DNA of 62,649 bases, filler included, from Streblomastix strix (lineage: Eukaryota), in the NCBI GenBank assembly GCA_008636045.1. It is 4 parts of 4 records of this genome, joined end to end, with 100 filler letters (N's around TTAATTAATTAA, not from the genome) between each part and the next. Parts side by side here need not be neighbours in the genome. Positions count along the whole stretch, not along the records: positions 31,397 to 46,975 come from SNRW01000961.1; 3 more parts are not named here. One strand, given 5' to 3'. The translations under genes and the position numbers were made by a program. This document shows, one piece after another, positions 19,860 to 59,170 of the stretch. The notes beneath the pieces were generated by a model. The model was not told where the DNA came from. It did no database searches and worked only from the letters and a program-made list of their open reading frames with translations. Within the stretch, counting starts at the first letter, position 1. Every line of letters begins with the position of its first letter.

Positions 19860-20469
19860 TCACATAATGATATATTTATCAACCAATTTCTAATAAATAA
19901 ATAGACAATAGCATTAATTTGGTAATACAATCATTTTCGTATGAGCATAAGAAACGTCATTTGTAGACGTTTAATTCCAACTTATTTTTCAATTATATTT
20001 TGCAAATGAAATATTTTTACCTTTAGTAACAATAACATTCATAATATTATCTGCAACTGCAATTTTATTCACTTGTTGAATAGTTTTTAAATTAAGACTT
20101 TAAAAATTTCATTGAATAAGGAAGTTTTTTATCATGATTTTCAAACAAACAGTAATTCTTTAGAGCTAATGCAATTTTTGATATTCTTCAATGTTCATAA
20201 GCAACATCAAGTAAATTGAATTCAACATAAGCATCTTTACTCGGATCTGGTTCGAATTTTTAGAAATTTTCATTATTGAATTATTATTCTGTAACAATCT
20301 CAGAGAATCTTTGAAAATAATCATTATTTAGATTACTGGTTAAAGCTAACATTATTTAATCAATATCACTATAAATGAAATGAAATTTATTGCTATCCTT
20401 GATATGTATAAAGGAAATAGAAGTAAATATTCTTATAAACCTATTTTGCACAATCTTATACACCATATG

Positions 20470-20505
<36 letters not shown>

Positions 20506-22200
20506 TACAATTAAATTTCTATTTCTCATACTCAACAGCTTAAGCATTATCAGCAAATTTACGATTACCTTTGAATTTTTTATTTAAGTGAGTACTAAAA
20601 GTTTCATTTCTATCACATATCTTGAAATCCATAAATTTTACTTAATTTGTACGATCACTTCCATATGAGCTGTTCGATGAAATCTTACTATACAATTCAA
20701 ATCTATTATTCTTACGAAAATTAGATGTAATGCGTTATTAACTGATATTTTATATAATTGATGAAAATTCATGATGCTTATAAATTGCTATAATAGATTT
20801 TGCTTCGTCAGTTATATAATGGTAATCATCAACAAGAAACCAAAAATAATATGAACTGAAAATCTTTATTTATTATATGGTTGATAATTATGAAAAAAAC
20901 TTACATTTTTCTTATTTCTTAGATAAACTATTTTTATTTAATGATAATTCATAAATTTTCTTCTTACATTTTCTAAACGTCGTTATTTTATTTTCTTAAT
21001 TTTATGTGTACAATTAATATAATCATTATTGTTTAACTTATAGATATGACCTGTAATCTCCATAATGAGAAACTTTACTTTATCAATTTTTGATTTCTGT
21101 AAAGATAACCATAAAATATTATTAATTTTTAGTAATGATTTTCATTTATGAACTAATGATTTAACCTGTATTTTTATAAAACGTAACCTGGAATTGAAAT
21201 CTAATAACCTAGATGTATAATATAATCATGTTTCTATTGGCTGATAACTGCTGTATACGAAAAATTAAATAAAAATCAATTAAATATTTCATTGTATTAT
21301 CCAGATCATAACTTATAAATTTTTCATCATCAATTTTCATCTAAATAATATGAGTTTCTCCTTAATTATTAAATCTATGAATATCATTATCTAAATCACA
21401 TGAATTTTCATTACATAAATCGTGATAAATATCACTGCTAGTAATTGACTTTTGGTAAACTTTTTGCAAAATAATATTTATTGATTTAATTTGCTAATCT
21501 AGAAATTTTTGAATCCCTGTAAGATCTTGCTTCTTAACAGTATTTGCAAGCAAATCTTTCGTTTTCTTTACTATGTCTAAGGGAATTATCAATTCTGTCA
21601 AATGTTGGTTAATCAGATATTGAAAATTTTGCTTTATAAAACCTTAATGAACTAGTCTTAATTAATTCTTTGTAATATTCATAATCAGATTCATTATTAT
21701 TATCTTTTCTATATCATCCTGCATTAAGATCCAAAATATGGTAATTTCCTATATTTTTTCACTAGCAATCATATACAAATTCGAATGGTTAATCACAAAT
21801 CATTAAGAAATCGCTATTACTATCAAAACGAGAATTCAAGTCAAAATCTTAACAATTTATCATTTACTTAATAGAATTTGCAAAGTATTCTATTTAATTA
21901 TAATTAAATATTTCAGTTCTATTACTAAAATTCATTTCAATAAGTCTATCTATTAGTATAGTAATGATAGTTGTATCCAATTCATTGTTATATTATAAGT
22001 AATCCCAACGATTATTAAAGTTCTTACTATCTTCTAATTAAAGTTTAAAATCATCATCAGATATCCGTTCTTCACGAAGTATTTTATTGAAATTTTCATA
22101 GGAAAATTGTTTGTTTTTTTCAAAACCTTCAATATTATTTTCTATTTTAATTTCATCAAAATTTAATACTTCTTTATTATTATTATAGTAAATTCAATTT
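19860..22200 (-). pseudogene. polB: Protein-primed family B DNA polymerase (Polinton-like, family A), decayed, 5' part missing
   Basis: ExoIII-like RWDYLQYNNELDT; HNH-like PTFDRIDNSLRHSKENERFACKYC; HRFNNQGETHI; WFLVDDYH; motif B SKISSNSSYGSD; motif C FIYSDID; C-terminal TKMIVLPNQ. Confidence 0.8.
20472..20501. repeat. (AT)15 microsatellite inside the dead polymerase gene
   Basis: Direct observation. Confidence 0.9.
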
Positions 22201-25599: not shown

Positions 25600-28500
25600 A
25601 AATAGATTTTCAAAAATAATAATTATGAATTTTATATTTCACAATGTAGATTGGTTTTTAACGATGGAATTTGTGAGATTTTTTCATTTCGTTGACTGGC
25701 GACAAATTCCCATTCATTTAATCCTTTTTCAATCATCTCAGCCTATTCGCCATGCAATTACTCAAATTTATGGCTCGAATTCCTTTTTTAATTTATAATC
25801 TTAACGTCGAATTTTCTTAATATACGTAACTTTATTCTCTTATTTTTCACAATCTCGATTTAAAATACTTTGTTTGCAATCTTTTTTGGTTTTTACTCCA
25901 ACACGCTAGATGTACTCATTCCATCTTTTTATTCTATAAAGCTGTTTTTTATAAATATTTCAATAGCTGCTAAATATGCTTCGATAATGTTTTTTTTTTG
26001 CTTTAGTAATTGGAATTTTACTTAAATTTACAGCTAAAATGTCTTTTTGCAAGAAATATTAATAAGTTATCATAAAATAGTTTTTAATGATCTAATTCGT
26101 AAACTTACTTGAAGAATTTTGTTTTATCAACACTAATAGTTAGACCATTATATATTATGAAGATACTGATAATGTTTAGTACTAAATATATTCAATTTGT
26201 TATAGATATTTATATGAGATTGCTATGATTTAATATTAAAATCAGCGTTGTAACGTTTTATTCAGTGTGTGGATTTACATATTTCACTTCATATTCTAAT
26301 TAATCGTCAGAAATTATTGATTTCAATGATTCAATATCATGTTATGACATATCGCTGAACTTTCTTAGCTCATTTCCAACAACTGAAACTATAAATAACA
26401 ATGAACTGTTGAATTTGCTTCCGATAAATGATAGTTTTGTAAAATTTCTCTCTGAATATCCATCAATTAATTCGCTTAATACATTCGTAATCATTTTTTT
26501 TTCTGTGCCTTTCAAGCCTGTTAATATAATACATACTTCTGTTTGTAACTACGGATATTAAATCAAGTGGGAAATCTAATTCGGGATATATTCATAAATC
26601 TACTCATAGTCATTTGCAATAACTTTTCTTAAAAGGTGCAGTATCGGTGAAATTACTTATAGTTAATAGTAATATGAAAGAAAATCGTATGTCCAGAATT
26701 AAAAATTTGAAAAAACACTGTGATCGCTGCTTATAAAACATATATCAGTAATTAATAAGAAATCCTATTAAATATTTGCTATTTATCACAGTACTTATGA
26801 CTTCAAATCAATATATTTCGAATTTTCATCTTGAAATTTTCTTGCTATATCAAAGTAAAACCTTAGAATTTCATAAAATAAATTCTTTCCAGATTGCTCA
26901 TCATCGTAATAATCCATGTTTTCGATTTGAAATTCAAATATTGTTTCAGACTTTTTCTTTTGCAACAATGTTGTTTCAGTTTTATTTTGCAAACCTTGAA
27001 ATACAGTAATTTATGACAGCTACTTCTAAATTCTTTTTTATTTTAGTATGTATACCACCTCTCCCCAATATTTCTAAATTCTAAGTATTTTTATCAAGTT
27101 AGATATGAGTTCCTCGATGCATTTATAAGATTTTACTCTAATTTTATGAGAAATATCATCTAAACTGAATTATACTTTTATTTCTATGTTTTGAACCTCT
27201 ATCTTCTTGAAATCAATTGCATCGGTTTACGATCCGTTGCGTTATTTCCTTTTTTGAAGCCAATAACGGAATAAATTATTATAGATAATATTCTAACTTG
27301 AACATTTTAAAAAATCCCTGAAAACAATACGATGACTATTATTTTTCAGAAAAACTTTCATGATGCACACGAAAACATGATTTTCACGTATATAAAAAAA
27401 TTACAATTTTCTTTTATATTATCATAATATTCATTTGTGAAATCTTAATTAACATCATCGAAGGATCTCATTCCAATTATATAAGAACGCAATGTTAAAT
27501 ATGCTTAATTCTCCATCTGCGTAAGGATTATTTGTGTGAATTATGGTCCAATTAAGTCCATTAACTAATTTTTCTGCTCATTCTTTGGTATTTTCACATT
27601 TTTCCATTCAATGCTTCGAGTTGTTTGCTTAGCAATTTTACATTTTTTCTTATTATACTTAATTATGCTGCATAACTTTTATATCAAAGCTTAATATTAG
27701 AAATAAATTTTATATTTCTACAAGATCTGATTTTTCATAAGCGTTATTTAAGTCCTAATATGTAAGAAGTGAATTTCTCAATTCGTCTGTTTAATGTCTC
27801 AATTTTATTTCTGGGTTTTATGGTTTTCTCTTAGAATCTCGATATTAATATATCATGGTTCCAGGATGTACAATTTTTCTTGTTTTATAACTTTCTTCAA
27901 CAACAAATATTTCACTCATTTCTCTATCAGAAACTGCGGCAACACATAAAAATACATCAACAGAAAAATCCTTTGTACAAATTATATTAACCATAGAATT
28001 TTGATGTAATTTGCATGGACCCATGTTATAATAAATATGAATCCGCCTCGTGAAAATTTAAAAAGTCCAACATTGCGGCGTCAATTGTATTTTTCCATCA
28101 AGACTTGCACATCTGTAGAAAATATATATATATCTTGAAAATCTAATTGTTTTGCAGGTTATAACAGTTATATTTTGCTACTACTTATCTCATCACTCTA
28201 TATAACATCAAATTTCATTTCATTATTAATGTTTATATTAATTGCTGTCAAGTATTTGCTTTAAGCAATCTCAAGAGTATGACTTATGCATGAATTATTC
28301 TTTTTTTTTGACATAGTCTTTATCAGAATGATAATTGGTTTGATATGCTATCTTATTATAATTATATAGAATAATTTGTCACAATATAACTTTTTCTGCT
28401 ATTCTTTTAGAAATTTAATTTTTAGAACTCTCTCTATACGATAAATCATGTGTGTTTTCTTGAACTACACCATTTTCATTAGTTTACACGAAGATCCATG

Positions 28501-28700
28501 TAAAGATCTAGTTAACCAAATTATTTATGTTATTTATAGCCCAATTATTCATATAATAAAGGATTATCTGTTTTCAAATCAAAAAGTCGAGCCTTCGGCC
28601 GTTAATATCATGTTTCATCTTTTGATTTTTACCTCTATTAAAATATCTTAGCGGATATATCCGAGATTTGAGACTTATTCTTATTTGTACATTTGTCAAA
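25600..28700 (-). pseudogene. Primase (AEP/Prim-Pol) fused to a D5-like SF3 helicase (family B element), decayed
   Basis: The 5' part aligns by eye with 45197-46854. The helicase part reads KVIANDYEQIYEYI..LIQYP..CIILTGLKGTEKK (degenerate Walker A), VVGNEL, LKSIISDD..EVKY. Confidence 0.8.
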
Positions 28701-28862: not shown

Positions 28863-31296
28863 ATGTCCACCAGATCTCACTGCAAACCTCATTATCAACG
28901 TCAAAAACAGTAACAGCAATCATTGTCTCCATTAAATAATGTAAAACGTAATAAAACCCACCCATCTTAAGATCAACTTTAACAAGTATTGATTTAATAT
29001 CGCTAAAGTAACGCAATCAACAGCAAAATCGCAACATAAATATTATGAAAACAATAACATAAACAACAACGTAAAAAAACGATTTCGAAAATAGCGTCTA
29101 ATACTTAAATCACAATCTCGCTAACAGAGTAATAAGGAGCGTAAATAACATAAATCTGCAAAAAAAATATGAAAAGAGATAGATGCATGACCAGATGAAG
29201 AGTGAAAAATATTTATCTTGGACATATCATTATGAACCAAGTTTAGAAGAAAATTCTCGCGAAACTGTCCAAAAAAACCAAGTTGGAATTCAAGATCTCA
29301 TCGATAAATACGAAGATTCTGTTTTATAACTAGTTTCTTCCGGCGATCCCGAGTTTATAAAATTATCTAAGCCTCTTAATAGGGGCTTGCTTACGTAAGC
29401 AATTAATAAATCTTGGACAAATCACAATGGAATTAAACTGGATTTTCATAATTTAGCTGGTACAACTGCAATAAAAGTTGATTTCTTTCATAATGATATC
29501 CGTCTACTAGAAGATATTGACAAATTCGTAGAATATTTATATATACATGAAAAAAGAAAATTATTTAAATGTACTTTAGATTTTGATGTCTGTATTGAAC
29601 GCAAAGAAATGCCCGAAAACATGAAGGAATTACTGAGAATCAAGAAACTTTTACATTAACTCTAAAATATTGATAGGTGCTACTTAGTTATTAATAGAAT
29701 TAAAATTCCTGAAAACAATTAAAGTTAATTACATGCCCCAATGATTCTCTTCGACAGTAATTCAATCGACATTTTCAAAGAATATATAAGCTCATCAATT
29801 TTGTTTATGCAAGAATTCGGAGAACTAATTGATGAAAAGGAATTGATTTTCTCCATATTTCCGATATAAGTTAAATCATACGGAGTACCTTTTCCTGGTA
29901 AAACATGGATGAATTGATTAAAACTCTAAAGAAAAAGAATTTTGTCAAATATATTCACCCTCATGATGATTATAAATTCAGATTCTGGTATAATTTAATG
30001 TGAATGACTATGCCTGATTCAGGATACGCCATGCTAAAGCCATAATGAGTGATAATTGATTGATATAAACGAACTGAGGAATGTAGACGTTAAATATTTT
30101 CCTTCTACAGAATTTCAAAACAAAATTAACGAAAATTTCTCAAAGAATATCCAGGATTTAATCGGAATTATGCTAATTAAAATTGTTAAAAAATTTTATT
30201 TAAATATCAATTGTTATGAATATGTCGGCAATAGATTCGATATCGATGTTAAAAAACCGAAATATTAACGGTAAATTTCATATGCTGATCCAAAAATTGA
30301 TGGATGAAAACCTAATTAAACTCTTTTATTAAATGATGATAATGGAAACAAACATACCATATATATCATAAATGTCGAGAAACAGAATCGTTTTCTTATT
30401 TGTCCAATCTTAAATAATCATTCAATCTATGAAAAGGATGAAAATAGGCACTTTTAAAGTAAATGGACGCTCATATTAAAGAATGCACGATGAAACTTTG
30501 AAATCCAAATAAATATGATAGATTAGAAAAGTTTTCAAAACCATCTATACTACATTTTACATCGAATTAAACTTAAAAATATCTGCTTGTCCACAATTGA
30601 TTATAAAAATATAAACTTACGTAATATTTCAAAATTTTTCTATTTAACTCAATATTCTAATAAGAAGATGATAGAAAATATCCTATTCTCAAAATAATAT
30701 CTGTTATATTAGCTATAAAAGCTAAGTAAGGATTAAAATCATGTTATTTTGACAGATGTCCACATAATTTCTGCGAAAGCAGCAACGATGAACGCATTTT
30801 TATAGATAAACCGCTTTATTAACTATTTGTTGAAGCAAAATAAATATAATTCGATAATAAACTCTCAGTTGATGTATTCTAACATTATGAAGTATCGATA
30901 ATTTGATTTGACTTGCATAAAACATAAATTACATTAATATTCAGAAATATCCGATCGAATAACTATGAAATTGTTGTTTTTATTGGATAATCAACATCTC
31001 CTAAAAATTTTATTATAAAATCAACTAAAAAATCTATAATTCATGAAAAAAAAGTATTTAAACTTAAGCCTTATTCGTCTTAAGTTTCTTGATGCAAAGA
31101 ACTATTTAGTTGACGATATTTCCTTTGAGAAATTCATAAAGGATGTATTCCCGAATGAAATTTAGACGCAAAGCGTCGTAGAAAATGATAAGATTTATGC
31201 AGATGCGGGTATTCTCGAAAAATCAAAATTGATGGTGAATTCCATTGGTTTCTTAAAATGTCTATGGTTCTACAAGAAAATTAACTTTTTGGCGAA
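28863..31296 (+). pseudogene. polB: Protein-primed PolB, N-terminal half (family B element), cut by the contig end
   Basis: ATGTCCACC at ~28863; colinear with the reverse complement of ~42600-45025 (VDFFHNDI, FKCTLDFDV, NINCYEY, RLKFLDAKNYL). Confidence 0.8.
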
Positions 31297-31396: not shown

Positions 31397-31661
31397 CACT
31401 TGCAGTTGTAGTAATAGGCGTAGCTAATCCTGGAACTAAATTAAGTTATAACGCCAATCTTTCTCCAGGAATTGTAATTTGCCAGTTAACTTAACATGAT
31501 TATACCATTGAACATGTTGCATTGCCTCTTGCGCCAAGTGGAGCACGAGTATATCTTTGTCCATCACTTGTCATCTGAGAAACAGGCTGATCAAAGAATT
31601 CTTGTTGACTCAATGTAAAACTTTACGGATGAATCAGTGCTTATCTTAGCACTTCTGACAT
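31397..31661 (-). CDS. N-terminus of a viral ORF, candidate major capsid protein, 3'-truncated
   Basis: ATG 31661, open to the contig end: MSEVLRQALIHPQSFTLSQQEFFDQPVSQMTSDGQRYTRAPLGARGNATCSMVQSCQVNWQITIPGERLALQLNLVPG. The capsid identity is inferred only from context. Confidence 0.45.
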
Positions 31662-31713
31662 TGAAAAATATGTTAAAACATAGTCAAAATGTTATACTTT
31701 TGCAAACTTTTAT

Positions 31714-32034
31714 ATGTAATCGCTTGCTGAGAAACTCATATAGATATAATTTGTTTATAATTTAAAATAATTTGTACGTTTTATTATTCAAACAAACGCA
31801 CAAGCAAGAAAATATACTAAAATTACTTTGGCATTCTTTTATGGATTGAAGAATTTTGGCTCAAAATTATTAGGCGGTATAAAGAAAGTTGTAGATTGGG
31901 TTGCACCCACGCTTCATAAAGTAATCGATACGTTAAGCGGACCGGTAAGCATGTTACATCCAGGTGCTGGATAAATAATGGGTACGATTGACAATATCGC
32001 CGGCGGATTTGAGCGACATTTGAATAAACACTGA
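31714..32034 (+). CDS. Small viral protein with an amphipathic, adenovirus pVI-like helix
   Basis: Intact 107-codon frame. From 31828 it reads LAFFYGLKNFGSKLLGGIKKVVDWVAPTLHKVIDTLSGPVSMLHPGAGQIMGTIDNIAGGFERHLNKH*. Confidence 0.65.
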
Positions 32035-32081
32035 TCTGAATAATTGATTTGATTACTATTTTTCATATTCGAAACTTAAAG

Positions 32082-32339
32082 ATGGAGGAATTGTATTTAT
32101 TTGCAAAATATTTAGGTAAAACTCATAGTGCGTCAGATTACGATGTATTTAAAATATTTTAAGCTCTGATTGATGATAAAGAATTATATGATGAGCAAAA
32201 ATAGTTCAATGAATAGAAAAAATAAGAATATAATGACAGATTTGGAATAATTACTGAATAAACTTAAGATGTTATAAGTTATATTCACAATTTTGATATG
32301 TCAAATTGTGTAAGTTAATAGAATTCACAAAACAATTGA
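32082..32339 (+). CDS. Small hypothetical viral protein (85 aa)
   Basis: Intact ATG to TGA under TAR=Gln (MEELYLFAKYLGKTHSASDYDVF...); overlaps the convergent ORF by 55 bp. Confidence 0.5.
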
Positions 32340-32767
32340 TTATATGGATCTTGAATAAACTAATTATAAATCTATTTTTCTTCATCATTTGCTTCAGATA
32401 TAATGTATTTCTTTATTTATTATGGTAGCTGATTCATATCCATCATCTTTTCTATTTGATTATATTCATTTGCGTATTATTTACTGTTATCGCCATATTT
32501 TTTATTTTTATAGTCCTCTTCATTTACGAATTATTTCATTTGTTGCAATTTGCATTATAGAGTTGAAAATTATTTGCTAATTTTTAACAATTCTTTAAAT
32601 AACACTTGCTATTATTCTGATTTATCTTTGATTATCAGAGAATGCAGAGTTTCTATTGTTGTATTTATTAGATCTTCATCTTCATAATTTGATTTAGAGA
32701 GTTCAGTGAAGAGTTATTTTAGTTGTTTTGACATATTTTCTACCCAACTTTCAGTTGAAACATACAT
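32285..32767 (-). CDS. Hypothetical viral coiled-coil protein (160 aa)
   Basis: Intact ATG 32767 to TGA 32285 under TAR=Gln (MYVSTESWVENMSKQLKQLF...). Confidence 0.6.
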
Positions 32768-32802
32768 TACTTGCAAAAATAAATTAAATGCAACTATTTA
32801 AA

Positions 32803-35027
32803 TCACAGAAGAATCAATCCTAATGTTATTAATTTTGCACGCCAACATTCGTTAGACTCATCTCTATAGAATCGACCTGTTGTATCTGTACTATTTTAAC
32901 TCTATAAGATTGAATTTCAAGCAGAATAATTAATTGAACCACTGCTCGCACTACCAGTTGCTCCAGTTCCAGTAATTACTGATCCATTGAAAGATAAAGT
33001 ATTTCTTTCAGCACTTTTTAATAGCACTCTATTAGCTATATTTTATTCTGATGTTTTAGCTATTAATAATGATTTATCATATTTTTTGTATATTGACCAT
33101 TAATTATCAATTGCACCAGTAGTTGAATTTGGGTTGCAACCCAAGTAAAATAAAAAATAATTACCTGAGGTATTAGCTATACAGAGTCCGTCATTTTCAT
33201 TACCATTTAAAGGGTTAATTTATAAAAGTTTATTGAAATATTTTTACCAATAACTGTTTAATCAGTTCCAACATCCACTAATCCATTATCATTAAATCAT
33301 ATTTATGAACTTTCATTATTAATACTTAATCCAACGCTATGATCTGTTTATCGCAATGAACAAGGTACTAAAGTTAATACACCATCATTATTTTTACTCA
33401 CTTCCCATTATCCTGCTACTGTTCCACTAATTGTAGAATTATTGCATGCTAAATATAATGATGATTCATTCAAATGAATTCCAATTCTAATTCCCTTATT
33501 ATAGTTTGATTTCATTCGATCTGTTGGATTAATTTATAGAGTATTTGGCATTATACTTCCATACCCATAGTCATAATTGATAGGTATTTATGTTTCAGTT
33601 GATACTGTGGTAACGACATCTTATGTTAATTTCTCGGGGATTCTAGCAGTAGAATAAGTGTTTTAATCAGTTACTACTGTCTTAATAGTACCAACTGTTT
33701 CTAATCTAATATATGCAGAATAATAGCTGCTGTGCATCTTCAAGTATGAGTATGAAATAATTAATTTGCACCATTATCAATCTAATAACTAATATTTACT
33801 TTGGTTGGTGCTGTAAATATTCCATATATAGTAGTGAAAACATTTACAGTAAAATTACGTTATAGTCTGATGATTTGAACTGCATTGTAAGCTGAATATA
33901 CTTTAAATTCAATAAATGGACTACCATAATTTGCATCTGCAGGAAATACACATAATCTAACCCATCCAGAACCAGAATATGTTCTTGAAAGCATAATTTC
34001 TTTTGTGGTTGTTTCACCATTAGCACATAAAATTTCTGTAGCTAATCCTCCAGCTTTAATAAATTTAATTGCTGTTATATTTCCATCATTAGATAATTAT
34101 TTTGGAATAACATGATCATTTCTACAATAATAATCACTTGTACCATAAGCCACTGCTGATACATTGACTAGTAGTACATTAGTAACTGATGGATCAATAT
34201 TCAATGGATGTTAATGTTCCGATCTAGCATATATATTAGACGAACCAGCTGTTCCAGCACCAGTATCTTTTTTCGGAACACTATTACTTAAATTTACAAG
34301 ATGAGTATGGTCAGATCTCACATAAATATTGGCAGTGCCTACATCACCAGTTGCAGTATCTTTTGCAGGTAAAACAGTGGAAACTTATAGAGGATGTTAA
34401 TGGTCTCCTTTAGCATAATCATTTTAAATTCCAGAAACACCTGCTCCACTATCCGCTAATGGTGTATTATCACCTGCTGGGGCTACCTAATCAGGTACTA
34501 TATCACCACTATTATACCAATTAGTTTCATACATCCATACAGTACCACTTTCAGCTGAGAATGCAAAATCACCATTGGCAGAGTTTTCTAATTATTATAT
34601 ATCTGTGTTCAATAAATAATATCCCCTAAAATGTGTTTATCTATTAAGTTCATCATTAATTGCATTAATTTATAATTATAATCCACCAATATCTTAAGTA
34701 GCAGTTCCAAATGTCAATTATATTATATTAACTTCTTATTCTAATGTTGATATTTTTCCAAAGAAAAGATTATCAATAAACTTATATTTTTCGATATCAT
34801 AACACCATTTGTAACCAATTTCATTGCATAATTCTAAGAAATATCGATTGGCGCATATATTAATGAGTTTTAGTCATCAATTGTCAATTAATATTCACTT
34901 CTTGATATTTAATTACTGGAACTTGAGGATTTCCTATGATATTATATCAAATATTGGAAATCAGATTATATTAATGATCGTTCTGCTTATATCTGTTATT
35001 AACCCAGTGTCTTTGCCAACGTCACAT
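32803..35027 (-). pseudogene. Phage-tail-fibre-like protein, with a few frameshifts
   Basis: Four G-x-x-G-x-x-x-x-Y-x-R/K-x-D/E-H-x-H-P type repeats; ITAIKFIKAGGLATEILCANG; LVDVGTDQTVIGKKYF; duplicated C-terminal beta-rich modules (xINP...G.RI...LYL.C...QW). Confidence 0.7.
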
Positions 35028-36132
35028 TTGAAAGTTATGCAAAAATAAATCTGCAATGAATTTAAACATCAATTATTCATTCTTTAAGACCATATATTTA
35101 CTCAGCCACTTATTAAATTCAATGAATTCATATTTGTTACGAGTATCATATACTAACATAAATTCATCAAAATCTAAATTCCAAATAGAATTTTCTTCAT
35201 ATGCTTGCAATAAATCACTTTCGCTAAGATGAGTACCCAAACTTAAAATATGTGATAGTATTCTTGCTGTTTTGAACAAGTAACTTGGACGTAATGCAAC
35301 AAAAAATACACTGTTTTTTATATGTCTATTATCGGAAACTAAATGAGTTATTATCTTCGCTAATCAAGATGAAAATCTTTAAATTTCAGCATTACTTCCA
35401 ATATCATCAAAAAGTAACAGCGAATTCAGCAGAGAAACATGAAATAATATTGGAATTTTTTGTTATTTTTAACTCGGCATCTCCGTTCGCTTATGATATA
35501 GATAATTTCCTTTCGAAATACTCATTATGAATAATAGCTGGAACAGTAAATTTCATAATCATTGTCGGAACACTGTATTTCGTTATTTTATCAATTCATT
35601 CTTATTCAAATATCTCAGCAATTCTTCTTGCATAATCCTTTGGTTTCTCCATTTATTTTTCGATAGACGCGGATGCAAGACGTATTTGATTCTCTTCAAT
35701 TGGATTATTTTGAATAATTCTTTCCTTAATTCTTTATATATAATCTGATTTGTAAGATATGTTTAGTTCACGTAATTTCCAATAAGATTAGACTTCTTTT
35801 ACAGAATACTTGATCTCCTCAAATTTTGGTAAGAAATGCATTGCTTCCTCATAAGTTATATTGGTTAATATTATATTCTTCGAGTTAATATTCAATGCCA
35901 TAGTCTCATATGCACCAAAGTTAGAGAAATATAAAATGAAAAGATTAATTTTTTATTTGTATATTAAAATTCGTTTGCTTAATAATGTTGTTTTCCCTGA
36001 ACCAATTGCGCCAACAATATAATGATTCCCATTGGTTAAGAGTAATGAATTTCTGGTTAATGGTTTGATTTTGCATTCATCTAGCATAGAATTATCGTCA
36101 AATGTAACTGATTATATCTCTTCTAATGACAT
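35022..36132 (-). pseudogene. A32/FtsK-family genome-packaging ATPase
   Basis: ATG 36132; Walker A HYIVGAIGSGKTTLL; Walker B SLLLFDDIG; Arg-finger region LVSDNRHIKNSVFFVA. One frameshift and internal TGAs. Confidence 0.85.
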
Positions 36133-36589
36133 TTAGGATGTACGCAAATGATCGCCGTAAAAACGGCTTTATCCCGAAGGGATAATCTGTTATTATTAAT
36201 AATTAATTCTATTTTTTTGGTGTTAATTTCGTAGTATCCGTAATTTCATTATCTATTCCTGAATAGCTTACATAAATAATCTCATTAATAAAGTAATTAT
36301 GGAGTTATATTGATGCAATTTAAGTGCCATTGAATATAATCATCTATATATTCTGATTTGTTTATCGTCGTGGAAAGAAATTAAAGATGTAATCATTAGA
36401 GAAATCACAAGTGGAATAGCCTTATTTTCATTAGTCTAAGTATTCGGATGAATAAATAGAAGATTTTATTAAGGAAGCGATTGAAAAATAAGATGAATAA
36501 CTTGCTAAGATGTGGAAATATATATTGTATTTGAAGTTATTGAATTTTAAAACGAATGATAATTAAAATTAAAAAAAACATTTTACTTC

Positions 36590-38222
36590 AATTGTTATGA
36601 ACTGTGTATGAATCACATATTTGAATAGCAAAATCATCAGATAAACTAATTTAACAAATAGTTTTTATTGTAACATTATCATTAGGATCAATACAACAAT
36701 CGATAGGAATTGCATCATTCCAACATATCGAATAACTATAATTTTTTTCGGCATACATTATTGCATATAAAGGAATATTTCATGTTACTCCAGTGAATTT
36801 TGGTTTTATAGCATTATCAACGATTGAAAATAATGTATATCTTGTATTCCAAGCATTATTTGGATCTGGATGTACCATTGGTAAAGATAAATATACTCTG
36901 TTATTTTATGCTGTTAAAGTTCCCCATTAGCGAATTTCATACATTACATAAGCTATTGGTCACTAATTAATTGATTCAATTCATTCGTAATCTAATTAAT
37001 CTTTATCAATAGTATCCCCATTAGTCAGAAGAATCTGATTATTTGTTCCACTTAAATTAATGATTTTATTAGCTGTGATAGGTTATGTAAATGTCTAAGT
37101 TCCAGTAATAATTTATGTAGTATTTATTGTTATTAAATCAGTTAAAGATGATTTCTTAAAGTATTAACTTAAATAAGTAAAATTTTTTATAATTTCATTA
37201 TCTATTTATTTATTTAGTTGATCATTTATACAACTTCTATAGTCATTCTATTTCTAATTGTTATTTCATCATCGTGTCACATTCTGATTTCATTTATTAT
37301 AGTTCTTCTTCTGACGATGCTTCGAGATCTGAAATTTGTAATTCTTACTCCATTTGAAACAAAAATAAATTCGGAACCTCCATGTTTCTTTCAGAAATCA
37401 TCAGGACCAATGCCTGATTCTAGTTTGTCAGATAATCTAACGAAGTACTTTTTTACACGATATAGCTTCTCAATACTATTCCACAACACATTGTCAATGT
37501 TAGAATTAGAGACATTCTTGATGAAAACATCCATGCTTCTTACAATTTCTTTCTTCTTGTATTTTTTTGATGTGCAATTATTATATCTCATCAATGGTTC
37601 TTCCATAACAATCTCAATATCATTCTCTTCTTCTTATGTTATTAATGCCCAGAGTTTGATATTACTATCTGAATTGATTATGAAATCTTCACATTTTTTA
37701 CGGGAATTAACAGTGTGCCATGCAACATCAATGATAAATTTCTGCACTTCTAAGTTAGGATGAGATAAATATGTTTCTTTTACAACTTATTCTGGCTCAA
37801 CTTAAGCAGTTTCTCGTTAAACTTCTTTAAATTTAAGAATGTTATACTCCCTATGACCAAATCGTTAACGATTTGGCAACAAGGCTACGCAGTCTCGCGG
37901 GCGATCTGCTGAAATTCCTCTTTAGAATTCCTCATTTTCATCAGAGTTGAATTCTTTATTTAATTGAGGAGTTTACGCAGAGCGCAAGTTGATTACGTCG
38001 GTTTACATGGATGAACCGCTCAGTTCATAAGAAAATATAGGTTGGAGCTAGTTCCGTAAAATTTAAAGAAACGGAATCTAAATCTTTTTCCGAAAACCAT
38101 TTGTTACCGCATCATCAATGGTTTATAATCTCGCCTTATCTTCTTCTGAAAGTTCCTTTTTAGCAACATTTGCATGCTTACTTTTATGAACTCTAATCTG
38201 ATTCGTTTATATTGTTGACATG
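36590..38222 (-). pseudogene. Viral ORF(s) with a C-terminal fibre-like segment
   Basis: ATG 38222 starts a long open frame with a few TGAs. Near the end it reads TINTTQIITGTQTFTQPITANKIINLSGTNNQILLTNGD, a fibre shaft motif. Confidence 0.55.
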
Positions 38223-38293
38223 ATTTTGAAACCTTTTGGTTTGCTTGGAACTTAAAGTTGCGAGTTTAAATATAAATTAAATCAGATAACAAG

Positions 38294-38850
38294 ATGAATC
38301 AAGCATAAGTATTCAAGAATCTCGTAGAAAATAATACATCAATTGAGCATTTCAATGATGGATACATCATGAAAGCAAAGTAAAAGATAAAACTATATGA
38401 AGAAGGAAAGAAATAACCAAAAACATTGACTTAAGCGAACGTAAACTTTAACAAAGCGAACAATTATACAGCGATGATGAAGATATTAAATAAACTATTG
38501 TCGAAAAATCAGCGGAGCTAATTGAAGGTTATCGTCTGAAACTCGCGAAAACTCCAAAGCCAACTCCATAAAAAATAATAAAGAAATCATAAATAAATTA
38601 CACTTAACCATAAGTTGATTTTGAAGAATTAATACTTTTGCGAACTAAAAATGCACTTACTAAATAATTATATCAAGATTCAATAAAGTATGTTGAAAAA
38701 ATGTAAGGATAAAATAAAGATGTTTTAGGTAAAAGAAGTAATTTTAGGAAGCATAGCGTCAGCCATAAACTCTGCCTCAAACAGAGAATCCTGAACTGTA
38801 AGAAGTAATTTCTGAAATACGTTTCAATGAAACAGATTTATGGGGATAAA
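38294..38850 (+). pseudogene. Hypothetical viral ORF, frameshifted
   Basis: MNQAQVFKNLVENNTSIEHFNDGYIMKAK...; K/Q-rich. Confidence 0.4.
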
Positions 38851-38899
38851 TATATATATCATAAAACAAATTTTATTCTTATTTAAACTCTTATTTTTA

Positions 38900-39210
38900 T
38901 TTCATATATTCTTTTAAATCAACAATTTTTGCAGAATCTATTATTTTCTTTTCCTTTTCATCGTATTTATCTACGATTTAATGCATTAAAATAAGGTCAA
39001 CTTCATTGTTTACAATCAATCTTCGCAATCTAATTTAAAATATTGCTAAGAATCAGGTGTTAATCACCGATATACTTTCATTTTTAGTAATTCCTTTGCA
39101 CGTGCACGTTTATAGCTAATTTCAGCAGCTTTAAATGCTTCTTCTTCTGTTTTATATTTAAATCGAGATGATTATCTCTTTGCATCAACGACGTTTGTAG
39201 AATTTTACAT
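38900..39210 (-). pseudogene. Small basic viral protein (KYKTxEEA family)
   Basis: MQNSTNVVDAKRQSSRFKYKTEEEAFKAAEISYKRARAK; homologue at 18120-18445. Confidence 0.55.
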
Positions 39211-39269
39211 TTTTTCAATTTAACTATTTTATAAAAAGATAATTTCCATTCTAGCAGACATCATGTTTT

Positions 39270-40514
39270 GAAATTTTATTTATATTATTAATTTAATTAA
39301 TATATTTCTTTTTCAACCAATTTGCAATATTAGACAGGTAATTTATAACATTTACATCAGAATATGGCTTTAGCAACTTGGCAACAACATTTCCATTTGA
39401 ATATCTTATGAATTCAGCTAATTCATTGAAATTTCTTCTTTATTTAAAAAACTGATGCCCTGTTTTAGAATAATCAAGATGAATAATTAGGATATTTCCC
39501 GGAAAAAATAACATAAGCGCTTGTTTCTTTTGTTATTTTTTGATTTCAAACAGCTAATTTTACTATTATCTTAAGTAAATCCCTTCAATATCATGATAAG
39601 GATTGACTTATTATTGGGTAAATTTATTGTCATAGGCAGAATGAAGAGTCTAGTTATACATCTATACCATATATTGCATTAAATCATTATCTGCAAACTT
39701 CTCAGAATAATTGCCAAATCCATTGCGAATAGTTCTGATAACAGAATCGACGACTTTGTTATGATTTGTGAATTTAGATTCGGTAATGAATGAATTAATG
39801 TTATTCTCTAAATAAAATGTTTTCAATATATTTCCATCAAATCCTTTCTCGCCATCGCCTCTGATATTCGTAACATTATAATTTTTAACCAATATTTTCA
39901 ACGCATTCTTGATTTAACCTGCTGATTGATCTCATAATGGGAAAATTACCAGATATTTTGTGTTAATATTTTTTGCAGAAGAGATATATTTAATTTACAC
40001 GAATGATATGTTCGTCCATTGAAAATACCAAATTAATTTCTCAAGATCCGAAATATGGAGAATAATATGGACGATTTAGCTTTGATAAAGGTTCTATTTA
40101 ATAATCATTAGGAGTATCTTGTACTTTTTGAGGTATTTCGCCATGAATCTTCTCATATTATTCAATTTTCTTTTTAAATGGATAATTTAATAGTTTTGTT
40201 GAGACTGCGTCATTTCATCGCTAAATCGCTGGCGATTTTGATGTTACTTATTCTTGTTTTACTGCTTACTCACGAAAGTGAGCAGGCAACGAGGTTGCTT
40301 ACAAACTAGGTTTGTTTTGTAATCTTGGAACACTTGATTAATCATATTTTAAAACATACTATTTAAATAATTACTCAAACATCTTTTCATTGAATTTTTC
40401 TTGATTTCACTTATTCGAATTCTTGACAAACTCTTAAAATTTCATTTGATTCATGTTATGATATGCAATATATTCGATCCATTTTGACACTTTTTCCTAT
40501 GTTTGTACGTTCAT
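39270..40514 (-). pseudogene. Polinton-type rve integrase
   Basis: ATG 40514; LNRPYYSPYFGS*EINLVF, YLFC.NINTKYL, NIRGDGEKGF, FTNHNKVVDSVIRTIRN, MYNQTLHSAYDNKFT. Contains frameshifts. Confidence 0.88.
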
Positions 40515-43500
40515 TTATAAGTTTATGCAAAAAATAATTTAAGATAATTATTGACGGTTTAAAAGCTGCACATTGAATATGGCTCATCAATTATATATTT
40601 ATCAGCGTTAATTCCATATAAGATAGATGAGCATGATTGATTTTTAAGAACTATTGTTTTTGTTCTAATTCCACTAAAGCCAAAACGATTTGATATTACT
40701 TCTGACATTAAACCTTATTTTTAAATTACAGATTTCCGTGTAACTTCAGTGTGATAATCATCTTAAATATTTTTAATAAAGAATTTCTTGAAATATTCAG
40801 ATTTTACTATTGATTAATCACTCTTAGCTTCATAATTTCGCAGTTGTCATACGTCTCTAAATAATAACACTTAGGGGCTAAAGCAAAGCATGTTTTTACT
40901 TGATGTTCAATGTTTCAACCAAGTAATTTCTTCTTTTCATGAATTTAATCAGATATTGAGAAAAATTAAAGATACAATTTATTCCATAATTTTTAGCTAA
41001 GAATTGGCCAATTTTTATCAGCGATTCTTAATCATAACCTGTCTGTATCACCGTAAATTACATGTATTTTATTCATATCAAGACATCGAACAAGAAAATT
41101 AAAGAAAGCATTAAGATAGAAATATTTGGAAATATCCATCACGAAATAAGCTACTTATAAAAGTGTTGAGCATTAACAATTCCGCTTTTCTAACTCCACC
41201 TCAGATAAATTATCAGAAAAATATCTTTCTGACTTAAATGTATTTAGCATATGATACATGCCAAGTTTTTATCTATTGCATATCCTAATATCTTGAAATT
41301 TCTCAGTATTTAGTGCATCATAACCAAATGAAGCATTCAGTTTTATTTTATACATTAATTCTAGATTTTTATTACCTGCAGCTTAAGCATCACATTTAAG
41401 CTTATGAGTTTCATAGACGAATTCGTGAAATGAAGTATTTTTAATGTATATTGTGATTCATTGTATTTCATCAATTATAATATGACATCTATCTATAAGA
41501 AACCATAAGTAATAGTTGTTTAAAGTCATGAATTCATTATGCGTCGACGATAGCATAAGTAATTTTGATTCTTCTTTATCGCATGCTACTTGATGTTCAG
41601 TCATATTTTTGTAAGTATATTCTCCGACAGTTTGCATATTCATTACTATCTTAAAATTTTGCCTAATTACAAGTAAATTTATAAATTCATTGATAAATTC
41701 TTCTGGAATATGAGCTTTAACAACTGCAATGAACAATTAAACCTTGTTTTCGATGATATCCTCATCGCAAGAGAATCTATTTTCATTATAAATTATTTAT
41801 CTAGCTCTGTATTCGTCTTTCACTAATGGAGTTATATCTCCTGGCTTACACATCTTATGATTTGTGTACTGAATCAGAATATGCGAACTTGAGCTCATTA
41901 CAGAAAGGATAAAAGGAATTGAAATCAAGGCATGTTAGATGTGAGATGATATAGGACAAATCTATGGAATGAACTGCTTTATCTGAAGAATTATACTTAA
42001 ATCTGTTAATTGGTATTAATCCAGATATATTTTCTCTGTGCAATACGTACGAATTTCCTCCAATCATACTGTTCCGTAAGATTTTATAAACATCTTGGTC
42101 AGAAATAGTCATTGCAAGATGATTAAGTTATGCGAATTTTCGTAATTACTTCATTAGTCGACATATATCTTTATCTTTGTTTGATGCATATTTATTGCAG
42201 TAAAGAGAACAAGGCTTAACAATAGTTTTTATGTGAGACTTTTCGTTATCTATTCTATATAAAGTTGGTTGATTTTTATAAGAAAATCTAGATTAACACA
42301 TATGGCAGCTAAACGATATGAATAAATCATGAAAATGTTTATAATCAGAATCAGATGCATTGTGATCCACGCCTAGTTTTTTTTAGTTTGTCTTGTGGTT
42401 TATAAGATTCCACTTTATATTTCCATTATTTTTCGGTTAAATTAAATGACAGATCATTAGTTTAAGGAGAATAAGCAACTCCGTTGCCTGCGCACCTTGT
42501 TGTATAATCAATGTCAATATCAAAATTCTTATAAACTTGAGAATTTTTATCAAGACAAGCAAGTTTAGCAAGTGACATATTCACTAATAAGTCAATTTTG
42601 TTTTTGACATATAGATTTATTAAGAAATCGATGGAATTTATCATCAATTTTGATTATTCGAGAATGTTATTTTCTTAAAACATAGCTTAACCAACTTCCT
42701 CTATGAATTTCTCAATCGAAATTTTGTAAACTAAATAATTCTTTGCATCAAGAAACTTAAGACGAATGGAGACTACGTTTTAATCTTATTTTTTCATGAT
42801 TTAAATATATTTTTCGGTTGGTTTTACTATAAAATATTTAGTAGATGATGTTTATCCAACAAAATCGACAATTTTATAGTTTTTCGATCGGATATTTCCG
42901 AAAATCAAGGTATTTGTTATTTTTAATGAATCAAATCCAATTAACGGTACCTCGAAACGTTAAGATACCTCATCATGGTTCGAAACATTAGCATCTTAAC
43001 TGCTTTGCGGGGACATATTATAGATTTTAACTTACTTTGTTTCTGCAAATAGTTAATCAAGCCATTAATCTACAAAACTGCGTTCCTCATTGTCAAGCTC
43101 TGCTTGAAAACTCGCTTAACTTCAATTGAAATAGCATGTTTTTATTCCAGACTTAGTTTAAAAGTTGATACAACAGAAATTGGTTTGATTACAGGGTATT
43201 TTATATAATCTTCTTATTGAAGCGCTGAGTTAATTAAAAAAAAGTAATATAATATTACGTTGTCTTATATTCTTATAATTGATTGTGAGAAAGAAGATAT
43301 TTATAAGTTTAATTCGATGTAATATGCAGTGCAAATGGTTTTGAAATCTTCTGTAATCTAACTTATTTATTTGGATTTCCAAGTTTCATCATGTATTCTT
43401 TAATGTGAGCGTCCATTTTGCATTAAATATGTCTATTTTCATCCATTGCATAGATTGCATGATTGTTGCATATTGGACAAACAAGCTTATCAATCAGTAT

Positions 43501-45025
43501 CTCAACGTTTACGATATATATGATATGTTAGTTACCCATATTATCGTTTAATAAGAGAATATTATAAGGTTTATGCTCATCAACTTATGAATCAGCAAAT
43601 GAAATTAGTCGTTAATATTTTGGGTTTTTTAAATATCATCTTCGAATCCTTCGCCGACGTATTCGTAGCAATTGATATTTATATTATATTTTTCGGCAAC
43701 TTTATTTGCATCATTCCAATTAAATCCAAGATATTCTTTGAGAAATTTACGTTAATTTTGTTCTGGAATTCCGTAAAAGGAGAATAACAAACGTTTTCCT
43801 TCCGCAATTCGTATATGTCTATCAATTTCAACGTCTTTCGAATAAAGCATAGTTACGCATGTTAAATTATACCAGAAACAGATGTTATAATCATCGTCAA
43901 TATCTATATATTTGATAATATTGCTTTTCTTATGAATTTTAATCAACTCTTCCATGTTTTTACGCGGAAAAAGTAGTCTGTGAGATGTAATTTACATCGA
44001 ATAGATTGCGGCAATCAATTCCTTTGTATAAATTAGTTCTCCGAATTCTTGCATAAATAAAATTGATAAACGTACATATTTTTTGAAAATATCGATTGAG
44101 TTTCTATCAAAAAGAATCACTGGAGCATGCAATTAACTGAAATTGTTATTAATAAGCTTAATTCTGGAAGTAACTAAGTAGCATCCGTCAATATATTGGA
44201 GTTTATGTATAAGTTTCTTGTTTTTCAGTTATTCCTTCATGTTTTCGAGCATTTCTTTACGTTCAATACCGACATCAAAATCAAAAGTACATTTAAATAA
44301 TCTTCCTTTTTCATGTGTGTACACATATTCAATGAATTTGTCAATATCTTCCTGTGAACGGTTATCACTATGAAAGAAATCAACTGTTATTGCAGTTGCC
44401 TCAGTTAAATTATGAAAATCGAATTTAATTCCACTGCGTCTGGTCCTAGATTCATAAATTGTTTACGTAAACAAATCCATATTTAGCAGATTAGATAATA
44501 GCATAAACTTGGGATCGGCAGAAGAAACTAACTATAAAACAAAATCACCGTATTTGTCGATAAAATCTTGAATTTCAACTTGGTTTTTTCTGAGAATTTA
44601 TTGACAATTTTCATCTAAACTTTGTTCTTAATGATATATCCAAGACAAGTAATTTTCACAATTCATCTAATTGCGCGTCTATCTCTTTTCTTATTTTTTT
44701 TTACAGATTTACGTTATTTACGCTTCTTGTTTCGCAGTTTGTGAGATTCTGATTAAAGTTTGCGATACTGTTTTCGAGGTTAATTTTCGATGTTTTCTTT
44801 AAGATTATTTCTTGGAGGTTTTATATGCAGCTTCGTCGGCGAACTTTTAACTTACAAATTTTGCTGATGATTAAGTTGCATTTGTGATATTAAATCACGT
44901 GTCTGTTAAAGTTGATGTTAATATGGGCGTGTTTTATTATTTTTTGCCTTATTTAATGGAAGTTATGATTGCGGAAGCTGTTTTTGACGTTGATTACGTC
45001 GTCTGCGGCGAGACTTGGTGGACAT
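40511..45025 (-). pseudogene. polB: Protein-primed family B DNA polymerase with a basic N-terminal extension and an HNH insert
   Basis: ATG 45025 (MSTKSRRRRRNQRQK); RNSMIGGNSYVLHR; motif A CLDFNSFYP; YLWFLIDRC; motif B KIKLNASFGYDALN; motif C IYGDTD; FALAPKCY. Its stop overlaps the integrase ATG. Confidence 0.92.
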
Positions 45026-45196
45026 TTGAGATTTGGTAAAATGTCAAAAAAATCAAATTCATAAAAAATAATTGAAATATTAAAAATGATTTTTTATTAA
45101 ATTTTATTATTTCTAATTTTTTAGTTTTTAATTTTTGTCATAATTAATTATTAATTCGTGATATTTGATTTTTTATTTTATCACTTTTAGTAAATT

Positions 45197-46854
45197 GGCA
45201 AATGTTTAAATAAGAAAAAGTCCCAAATCTCGGATATATCCGTTAAGATACATAAATTAGGGAAAATCAAATGATGAAACATAAATTAACCGTTAGGTGC
45301 TGAATTTTTTGATTTTGAAACAGATAATCCTTTATTATTAGAATAATTGTGATATAAATCGCATGGAAAATATAGTTAAGTAAATCTTTACATGGATTTT
45401 CGTAAATATAGTGAAAAACATGAATTTTCACCAAAAACGCTTGATTTATCATATAGATAGCGCACTAAATATGAAATATCAAAAAAATTAATAGATAGAA
45501 TTTAGTTTGCGACAATTTATCTGTATAACTATAATAAGATAGCATATCAGATCAATTATGAATCCGAAAAAGCATATGCCAAGAAAAATATGAATAAAAC
45601 ATGCTCAGGTTATACTCTTGAGATTGCATTATGCAAACACTTCGCAGTAATTGATATAGACATTGATCATGAAGAGAAATTAGATGTTTCGCAGCATGAA
45701 AAGATAAGAAATAGCATAATATAACTGTTTTAACCTGCGAAACAATAAGATTTTCAAGATGCGTTTACAACTCCAACTGATGCACAAATCTTGATGGAAA
45801 AATGCAATTAACGTCGCAACATTGGACTTGTTAAATCAGCAAGAGGCGGACTTCATACTTATTGCAACATGGGCCTTCTCAAATTACATCAAAATTCTAT
45901 GGATAATGCAATTATAACAAAGGATTTTTCAGTTGATGTATTTGCATGTTTTGATGAAATGAATTTTAGAAACAGAAATGATTTAATTGAAGTTGACGAT
46001 ACATACAAAACAAGAAAAATTGTGCAACCTGGAACTTAAATATATAAATACCGAGATTCAAAGAGAAAACAACTAAGTCCAGAGATAAAATAGAAGTTAT
46101 AAACAAACGAATTGAGAAATCCAATTCTTACATATCAGGACTTAAACAACGCTTTTGAAAATACGGATCTTACAGAAATATAAAATGTATTTCTAATATT
46201 AGGATTTGATATAAAGATTATTCAGCTCGATGTAGCAAAATTAGAAAAGATCGAAGAACGCAAAAGTTGTAGTCAAACATCAGCTGCAGGCGGAATCTAT
46301 GGCTTAGAAAAATGCGAAATGACCAAAGAATAAACAGAAATATTAGTTCATGGATTAGATGATATCATAATTCATACAAATCATCCTCATGCAGAAGGAG
46401 AATTAAGCTTATTTATGAAGTGCACTTATATAAATGGATTGTGATCCATCGACGAAGTTGATGAAGATTTCATAAATGAATGCTATGATTATATTGAAGA
46501 AAATAACAATTACTCTTCATAAGCGTAAACATGGTTTCAAGCATATCGTTAACGTAATTCTGAAAAATAATAATCGCCATATTGTTGGCAGGGATTTATC
46601 AAAAAGTTCAAGCCAGACTATCACACATAACAATTTGTTACATTATTGGCATCAAAAATGAAATAAAGCTGCAGATCAGAATCCGCTGTTATCGATTTCA
46701 AGAAGATATAAGTGCATAACATCGAAATAAAAGAATAATTCTGATTTGATGACATTATACATAAAATTAGAGTAAAACCTTATGATTGTGTTGAAGAAAT
46801 AATATCTGACTTGACAAAAATACTGAGAATTAAGAAATATGGGAGTGAGGTGAT
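45197..46854 (+). pseudogene. AEP/Prim-Pol primase domain of the primase-helicase, 3'-truncated
   Basis: FAVIDIDID (motif I), LVKSARGGLHTYCN (motif II), FSVDVFA (motif III), KIVQPGT. The homologue at 25600-28700 continues into an SF3 helicase. Confidence 0.85.
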
Positions 46855-46975
46855 AAATTTACGTTAATTTTGTTCTGGAATTCCGTAAAAGGAGAATAAC
46901 AAACGTTTTCCTTCCGCAATTCGTATATGTCTATCAATTTCAACGTCTTTCGAATAAAGCATAGTTACGCATGTT
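46855..46975 (+). repeat. Exact 121-bp direct copy of 43743-43863 at the contig end
   Basis: AAATTTACGTTAATTTTGTTCTGG...GTTACGCATGTT is identical at both positions. Confidence 0.95.
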
Positions 46976-58400: not shown

Positions 58401-59170
58401 TCTTGTCTAAATAGCCAGATAATAACTCAGAGAGTAGGTCAGTAAAACCATTTTTTCTGCAGCCAAATCCACATCTTAATAATATAGCAACTATTGATTA
58501 TATTTCTGGATAATATACTATGGAAGCAAACTAATTCAAAATATATTCAAAAATTGCTTTATCACCATTAGCTATAACTTATTTAATATGATATAACTAT
58601 TGTTATATTAGATTCATGTTTATTTCTTATAGTTCATGATATTTCCAGCCTTAAAACATAGAAAATAATTCTGGATCATCACTTTTGAAATCAACTTCAT
58701 TAACTACGAATAATTTGTGATAAGCAAAAACTAATTATCACAGTGTTTTAGACTTCTTTCTATTAAAATGTGCTGGAATCATGTTTAATACATCTTATAC
58801 GCATGATTTACTTTTCCAAACGAAAATATATTTCTTTTCCAGATTATCGTATTATTTGAATAAGAATGTATCATAATCTACGTGAACATATCTCATTACC
58901 TTAGACATATCAGATATAATATCATCAACACATTAATATTCTTCTAAATAAATATTATCTTTTATATCTGTTAATTTGAATTTCTCTGATAAATCAATTT
59001 TATTTACAACAATTTTACTAATATCGATTTTATCTTCTTCATTATAAGAACTATCATGAGATTTCACCGATGATTTTTTATCATCATCTTTTACTGATTA
59101 TTCTTTGATTTAGAGTTCAGATTCGATATCACCTTTAATTGAAGGATTGTTTGTAGATATTAGGTTAATT
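58400..59170 (-). pseudogene. Fragment of a viral D5-like helicase, ending just after Walker A
   Basis: FSMFQGWKY..HIKQVIANGDKAIFEYILN.FASIVYYP..AILLRCGFGCRKNGFTDLLSELLSGY; same family as 2639-5040 and 25600-28700. Confidence 0.75.

Follow-up and report, generated by a model that had tools for sequence, protein, structure and literature searches.

Inherited loss of the proofreading exonuclease motifs in a Maverick/Polinton polymerase lineage of Streblomastix strix, a candidate error-prone replicase

Introduction

Loss of proofreading in protein-primed polymerases has been represented by end points only, the mavirus and Tlr1-type enzymes, and helicase compensation has been proposed from them. 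Among the cellular B-family enzymes, Pol alpha and Pol zeta have an exonuclease fold that is retained although catalytically dead.

Maverick/Polinton protein-primed B-family polymerases (pPolBs) have the arrangement TP-vOTU-Exo-Pol (PMC11161782), and in a nematode study all three Exo motifs were conserved in the Polinton pPolBs surveyed, some of which carried HNH insertions (bioRxiv 10.1101/2023.08.22.554363). Mavirus and Tlr1-type/PLV enzymes are described as having lost the exonuclease and gained a helicase, which is proposed to compensate (PMC11161782), an account repeated in PMC13215967 and PMC12721341. In the phi29 polymerase, the exonuclease domain forms the downstream-template tunnel together with TPR2 (PMC6351526, PMC4974454), and metal-site mutants lose strand displacement (PMC6351526). 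Endogenous viral elements have been reported in S. strix, which reads TAA and TAG as Gln (PMC10120064).

Neither an exonuclease-dead Polinton clade nor the S. strix lineage turned up in the literature search, which took in a minority of the subscription papers, although supplements may list S. strix elements. An independent, graded loss of the exonuclease inside integrase-bearing Polintons was not found in print.

Results

The window, meaning the whole stretch of 62,649 nucleotides analysed, consists of four contigs of ~15.6 kb each with N-padded spacers between them; an apparent 15.7-kb repeat proved to be the contig spacer. Long ORFs are open under table 6 only (TAA/TAG=Gln), and a table 11 reading, which gave just 6 ORFs of at least 100 aa, was dropped. 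Every one of the closest proteins carries the label Streblomastix strix, a termite-gut protist.

The two family-B pPolB copies lie on different contigs, share ~72-83% identity in ungapped stretches, and belong to elements that both run off contig ends. Copy 2 (40586..44974, minus strand), located by tblastn with P0004, P0007 and P0008, matches P0004 with 80% identity across the 1277 codons mapped by frameshift-aware alignment. It comprises an N-terminal (TP-like) region, a vOTU, a zinc finger, the dead exonuclease, an HNH-like domain and the polymerase domain, and it carries 8 lesions (5 frameshifts and 3 stops). Copy 1 (28931..31296, plus strand), traced by tblastn and frameshift-aware alignment, carries 13 lesions and is without a polymerase domain because its contig ends at 31296, after the exonuclease remnant. 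A family-A pPolB remnant (20053..22187, minus strand; tblastn) is present from the ExoIII block onward, and an integrase remnant belongs to the same locus (18905-19407; tblastn).

A Maverick/Polinton retroviral-like integrase remnant directly follows the copy-2 pPolB (39344..40163, minus strand). It was recognised by tblastn matches to P0015 and P0064, in the C-terminal part of each; UniRef names both as integrase catalytic domain proteins, and the remnant had zero Pfam matches. A packaging-ATPase-like remnant with the Walker A motif GAIGSGKT (35878..36018, minus strand) is a weak match (E 0.057) to the Pox_A32 ORF of the metagenomic locus L001. No capsid or protease gene was recognised in the decayed, cut contig of copy 2, and a six-frame Pfam scan of 31397-40798 and 45100-46975 returned nothing. 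The same element contains a 377-codon open frame (33743-34873, minus strand) of repeated RxDHxHP-like units, fibre-like in character and with no Pfam match. Elsewhere in the window, a 33-nt tandem array at 6591-7567 is open on both strands under table 6, where it encodes an 11-residue repeat that is acidic or Ser-rich.

The original prediction held that both family-B copies lack the exonuclease catalytic residues at the same places, and the frameshift-aware alignment to P0004 confirms this: each is without the ExoI DxE, the ExoII N..D and ~50 residues that include ExoIII. In copy 2, the ExoI position (43215..43260, minus strand) has no DxE and reads TQYYITF, then LINS at 43260. A frameshift private to this copy falls inside it at ~43241, and the aligned contigs omit 2 letters at 43234-43238. 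The predicted reading, TQYYITFFLINS, therefore spans two frames; uninterrupted relatives read TQYYITFL(F/L)N, likewise without DxE. The ExoII position (42906..42944, minus strand) reads LIGFDSLKITNTL at 42944, with GFDSLKIT in place of the motif and both the N and the catalytic D absent. At the missing-block junction (42657..42689, minus strand), ~50 residues from the GxFPY block to the ExoIII YxxxD are gone: FLDAKNYL..EKFIEEVG at 42755 is followed 11 codons on by QSKLMINSID at 42656. Copy 1, on the plus strand, reads TQYFKIFLFNSIF at 30619 for ExoI, FDLHKTQITL at ~30907, FLDAKNYL at 31085 and KSKLMVNSIG at 31220, so the near-direct jump from FLDAKNYL..IEKF to SKLM(I/V)NSI exists in both copies. 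This junction measures 29-31 aa in family B versus ~80 in intact relatives.

Two supporting points of the prediction held in part. The family-A copy, offered as an internal control, keeps the block length and YLQYNNELD, but the KGxFPY claimed for it reads KEVLNFDE; alignments to it begin at 22187, so that the window shows neither its ExoI nor its ExoII, and it is a weak control. Polymerase motifs A, B and C are present in copy 2, as claimed: motif A is DFNSFYPS (41897..41932, minus strand, with a frameshift at ~41905), and the frameshift-aware alignment places motif B (KIKLNASFGY, 41349) and motif C (YGDTD, 41058) within 41035..41349 on the same strand, a region with a weak Pfam DNA_pol_B_2 match (E 8.5e-5, below the cut-off). 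Motif C, however, reads YGDTDRL, which together with the 8 lesions indicates that copy 2 is itself dead.

Aligned contigs number 774 over copy 2 and 134 over the exonuclease, representing many divergent copies, and one of them spans 42560-42851 gap-free. Among the joints listed for these contigs, none adds the missing block, a weak negative result given that one joint, at 42644-42702, has undefined content and that an 80% likeness filter would exclude intact relatives.

Because the two window copies are pseudogenes, with a frameshift on ExoI in one of them, the pattern might have been an artefact, either of descent from one dead element or of gene models that hide the motifs. A search with the remnant retrieved P0003 (995 aa) and 4 cluster mates. 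In all five of these open family-B proteins, the ExoI position is YITFL(F/L)N and the ExoII position GFDSLKTS, and 3 of them span the junction with 29-31 residues each; thus none of the five long open frames restores DxE, ExoII or ExoIII. P0004 is a 1290-aa frame occupying 3870 of the 3872 bp of its own contig, which leaves no room for a mis-called intron hiding the motifs. Over residues 2-743, where copy 1 has 13 stops or frameshifts and copy 2 has 3, the two share none. The pattern is moreover common to three subfamilies ~50% apart. The artefact of decay is refuted by the intron-free frame, the tree described below and the unshared lesions, and only the faintest chance is left to it.

Between the two copies, dN/dS is 0.54 over 679 codons, against a mean of 0.73 (0.57-0.91) in neutral simulations using the same base changes as the copy pair; 3 of 500 simulations were as low. 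For the exonuclease remnant alone (195 codons), the value of 0.56 is indistinguishable from neutral, with 57 of 500 simulations as low. The predicted order of events, in which the loss predates decay of the copies, is upheld by the pattern shared among open frames and the absence of shared lesions, and the loss was very probably inherited from one ancestor.

The homologue search gave 68 proteins, which with cluster mates made 72 aligned rows. Eleven rows are exonuclease-dead, all from S. strix, and fall into subfamilies B, C and D. Subfamily C (P0015, P0064, P0068 and P0072, the last covering little) is represented by broken gene models only and has a YITFRFQK-like ExoI, GFDCLKSA at ExoII and a 19-residue block. 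Subfamily D (P0008 and P0046) has YITYKFFT at ExoI and GWDSSKFD at ExoII and keeps the block, with HCIEQD. DxE occurs in 0 of the 10 dead-clade rows covering ExoI and in all 54 others (11/11 remaining S. strix rows and 43/43 remaining rows covering the site), a split that is not due to chance. At ExoII, the dead rows have N in 0/10 and D in 2/10, compared with 57/57 in the others (12/12 S. strix, 45/45 rest). The lineage does not show the set of signatures that marks a proofreading B-family enzyme (ExoI DxE, ExoII NxxxF/YD and ExoIII YxxxD). Since the dead set was defined by these motifs, the counts describe the split and the tree serves as the independent test. Two motif-intact proteins, P0037 and P0018, have short blocks of 15 and 41 aa at other break points, probably gene-model gaps.

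A wider search, taking the best 150 of 1027 matches and their cluster members, added 164 proteins. Those nearest to dead rows had DxE in 0/12 and full ExoII in 0/8, and those nearest to intact rows in 30/32 and 36/41, respectively; ten near-dead proteins that were looked up are all labelled S. strix. A fragment among the relatives, P0198, reads YITYSIMS at ExoI, is 49% identical to subfamily D and possibly represents a fourth dead subfamily. The viral contigs searched contained no relatives, and metagenomes yielded 3 loci, no more, at 31-35% identity. No RNA run was among the sequencing runs listed.

The tree was built from post-exonuclease columns only (561 columns) for a hand-chosen 31 of the 72 rows. 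In it, all seven dead rows group as a single clade (100/100) whose sister is an intact S. strix family (99/98); two more intact S. strix rows fall outside, subfamily D branches first, and B and C group together (100/99). A mixture model on 20 hand-chosen rows gave the same shape (100, 95, 99). These subsets replaced a first tree, rooted on the distant P0074 and omitting 5 of the 72 rows for low cover, in which the dead groups were unresolved at the root. The loss is therefore wider and older than family B. Root-to-tip lengths are only slightly greater in the dead clade than in its sister (0.57-0.74 vs 0.44-0.70 with 31 rows; 0.83-1.03 vs 0.63-0.76 with 20 rows). Over the 0.6-0.7 substitutions/site from stem to tip, the catalytic polymerase residues stayed intact, which indicates long selection on the polymerase after the loss.

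The branching order suggests that ExoI and the ExoII Asn would have been lost first, since subfamily D keeps the block and two Asp. The B/C ancestor may then have lost the ExoII Asp and the block and gained a Phe in motif A.

S. strix has many exonuclease-intact pPolBs and most copies are broken, as would be expected if the lineage were non-autonomous, replicated in trans by intact sister Polintons while its own polymerase eroded from the exonuclease onward. Yet the catalytic polymerase and vOTU residues have been kept over ~0.6-0.7 substitutions/site since the split from the intact sister, which calls for selection on the element's own enzyme and makes such dependence improbable.

P0003 and P0004 carry the polymerase motifs DFNSFYPS, KIKLNASFG and YGDTDS, with APKCY (KxY) in P0003; Pfam gave no match at all for either protein, and a PDB sequence search returned nothing useful. 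The vOTU residues are present in family B (NICFWY, NQHIMY), with the Cys in 37 and the His in 40 of the 41 rows covering both; the name vOTU follows PMC11161782 by position rather than by fold match and is putative. The N-terminal region of P0004 spans ~270 aa. The YxGG region reads MIGGNS/MVGGNS in B and C versus ITGGLS.

The structural model of P0003 (pLDDT 85) has a phi29-like fold: its best match is phi29 polymerase (Z 17.3 vs 12.1 for the next family), at an rmsd of 3.5 over 477 residues starting from residue 197, the first strand of the exonuclease, and a TM by target of 0.63. The intact control P0027 (pLDDT 91) scores slightly better against phi29 (0.69). About 170 exonuclease-core residues are left and are modelled as strands and helices of the fold. 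Among B proteins, identity in the polymerase domain is 96%. Between B and D, identity is 0.49 in the remnant and 0.53 in the polymerase domain, against 0.46/0.57 and 0.51/0.65 in intact pairs; judged by these values, conservation of the remnant relative to the polymerase domain is like that in intact pairs.

With the fold predicted to be conserved, proofreading might persist by another route, through shifted acidic residues that rebuild the metal site or through editing by the HNH-like domain or a host nuclease. The candidate acidic residues are an Asp at the ExoII Asn position, common to B, C and D, and an EDD run just after the ExoI strand; subfamilies C and D lack the latter, and B and C have lost the ExoIII helix region through deletion. 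The HNH/EndoVII-like zinc domain of copy 2 (CxxC..PTLDRIDN..H..C..CN; 42170..42310, minus strand; alignment) was rejected as a substitute because it is equally present in exonuclease-intact relatives. Persistence of proofreading by any of these routes is very improbable. The whole pPolB group has this domain after the ExoIII position and before the polymerase domain; its Atlas neighbours carry PF02945 on 14-25% of members, which is a lead to its identity.

In the 67 rows that show the pattern, the residue directly before the motif-A Tyr is Leu (47 rows), Gln (14), Met (3) or Phe (3). Phe occurs in P0003, P0004 and P0064, all B or C, and also in copy 2, so that support comes from two B proteins, one C gene model and the window copy. 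Motif-A readings of near-dead fragments among the 164 further proteins were mostly misalignments and were left uncounted, adding no reliable Phe. In the intact S. strix sister family (P0009, P0010, P0012 and relatives), motif A is DF(H/D)SQY(P/A)S, with an unusual Gln at the fidelity site (the 14 of 67 rows), which marks the site as labile in S. strix.

Changing the equivalent Leu to Phe is a mutator in yeast Pol alpha (DfnSLYPS, L868F; PMC4120765). In RB69, L415F without exonuclease raises mutant frequency to 0.025, compared with 0.0029 for exonuclease-deficient and 0.0008 for wild-type enzyme, and increases lesion bypass (PMC2475618). As in these engineered alleles, Phe in B/C stands directly before the steric-gate Tyr in DFNS-x-YPS; unlike them, it is natural, inherited and in a protein-primed enzyme. 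Carried over to the B/C enzyme by analogy, it would raise misinsertion, mismatch extension and lesion bypass, effects that would suit this enzyme because errors cannot be excised. The prediction of an error-prone or repurposed replicase thus gains support from motif A for its first half, by analogy, while repurposing stays a rival.

Copy 2 lies head-to-head with a Prim-Pol (AEP) gene (45202..46861, plus strand) that is 70% identical to P0075 and cut before any helicase part. Its identity comes from Atlas Prim-Pol clusters at 0.93-0.94, with no Pfam match. At the contig end, inside the path of this gene, a 125-nt segment of the pPolB gene occurs a second time (46834-46974 vs 43739-43863, 99% identity), a chimera or assembly artefact. 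Copy 1 is likewise head-to-head with a Prim-Pol and SF3 helicase gene (25668..28692, minus strand), recognised by P0075 matches and by DUF5906 (E 7e-11) at ~26222-26524.

The exonuclease-intact metagenomic loci L001 (16.7 of 20.8 kb covered) and L002 (21.1 of 23.5 kb covered) have no match to the Prim-Pol/SF3 gene and no second credible Walker A. Both are near-complete Polinton-like elements with an A32 ATPase and protease- and capsid-like ORFs, although no integrase was recognised among the ORFs scanned; the pPolB of L002 equals P0065 in length and motifs.

Prim-Pol/SF3 remnants also occur on contigs without a pPolB. A ~2.95-kb stretch at 2444-5397, bounded by 92-nt inverted arms that are 72% alike with the shared core GGTCAGGGTGCCCATA, holds Prim-Pol and SF3 helicase remnants (3127-4902, minus strand) with no pPolB match and is possibly a small primase-helicase mobile element. 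A further remnant lies at 58384-59052 on the fourth contig. The link between helicase and dead pPolB has the two window copies as its basis. Besides the remnants on contigs without a pPolB, two points speak against a specific link: some Polintons carry D5-like genes (PMC4405056), and AEP-SF3 genes may be mobile (10.64898/2026.10.13.758929). The combination of pPolB with a primase-helicase is described as uncommon (PMC3671162).

Discussion

The lineage resembles Maverick/Polinton pPolBs (PMC11161782) in its vOTU Cys/His, phi29-like polymerase fold, motifs A-C, inserted HNH-like domain and adjoining integrase gene, and differs from the pPolBs surveyed in the nematode paper in the loss of the Exo motifs throughout the S. 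strix clade and in the motif-A Phe of B/C. Like mavirus-type enzymes, it lacks proofreading and shares its element with an SF3 (DUF5906) helicase gene (PMC11161782, PMC13215967). Mavirus, however, keeps a domain remnant only, whereas here most of the exonuclease domain has not been deleted, most of the fold is kept and intermediates survive; the S. strix clade also nests among exonuclease-intact Polinton enzymes, and its helicase is joined to Prim-Pol. The Tlr1-type pPolB-SF1 fusions of PLVs and transpovirons likewise combine exonuclease loss with a helicase, but they have lost the domain outright and carry a fused SF1 helicase (PMC11161782). The S. strix clade has an SF3 helicase and no SF1 fusion to the palm: P0008 and P0077, whose C-termini are complete, end as intact relatives do, and in copy 2 the integrase comes next.

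The likeness to the cellular Pol alpha and Pol zeta, which are not protein-primed, is one of convergence and not kinship.

The reading that fits best is a Maverick/Polinton pPolB lineage in an oxymonad genome that is probably an active, error-prone and likely helicase-assisted replicase with a structural pseudo-exonuclease. The dead domain may be retained as a wall of the downstream-template tunnel, and loss of the metal site would weaken strand displacement, for which the neighbouring SF3 helicase may make up. By analogy with phi29, the tunnel would give a reason to keep the dead fold, and the strand-displacement role of the metal site would create the need for a helicase.

The main rival is a priming or repair-only role, which appears unlikely. 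A repurposed pPolB would only initiate, through terminal-protein priming, short extension, lesion bypass or integration gap filling, while Prim-Pol/SF3 or the host replisome would copy the bulk of the element and make proofreading dispensable. In its favour are a second polymerase-like gene flanking both copies, the lesion bypass that the Phe allele promotes in other B enzymes, the altered YxGG region of B and C, and a protein-level rate that is little raised. Set against this, the entire phi29-like architecture aligns in the model over 477 residues, and the polymerase domain, at 96% identity among B proteins, is no less conserved than in intact pairs.

Within the error-prone replicase reading, a more specific and tentative possibility is a natural hypermutator caught mid-transition, with stepwise loss of proofreading, a fixed Phe and a newly acquired dependence on Prim-Pol/SF3. 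If so, these elements would be surviving intermediates of the exonuclease-for-helicase trade proposed to lie behind the mavirus and Tlr1-type replicases. A single species label covers intact sisters, an intermediate with point mutations and descendants with the block deleted, and long open genes exist, so that direct tests can address in what order the events took place, what the loss cost in fidelity and whether the helicase is needed. The lineage also provides a phi29-like enzyme that is naturally exonuclease-dead and carries a known fidelity substitution, and it prompts the question of how a replicon of Polinton size would cope with an increased error rate.
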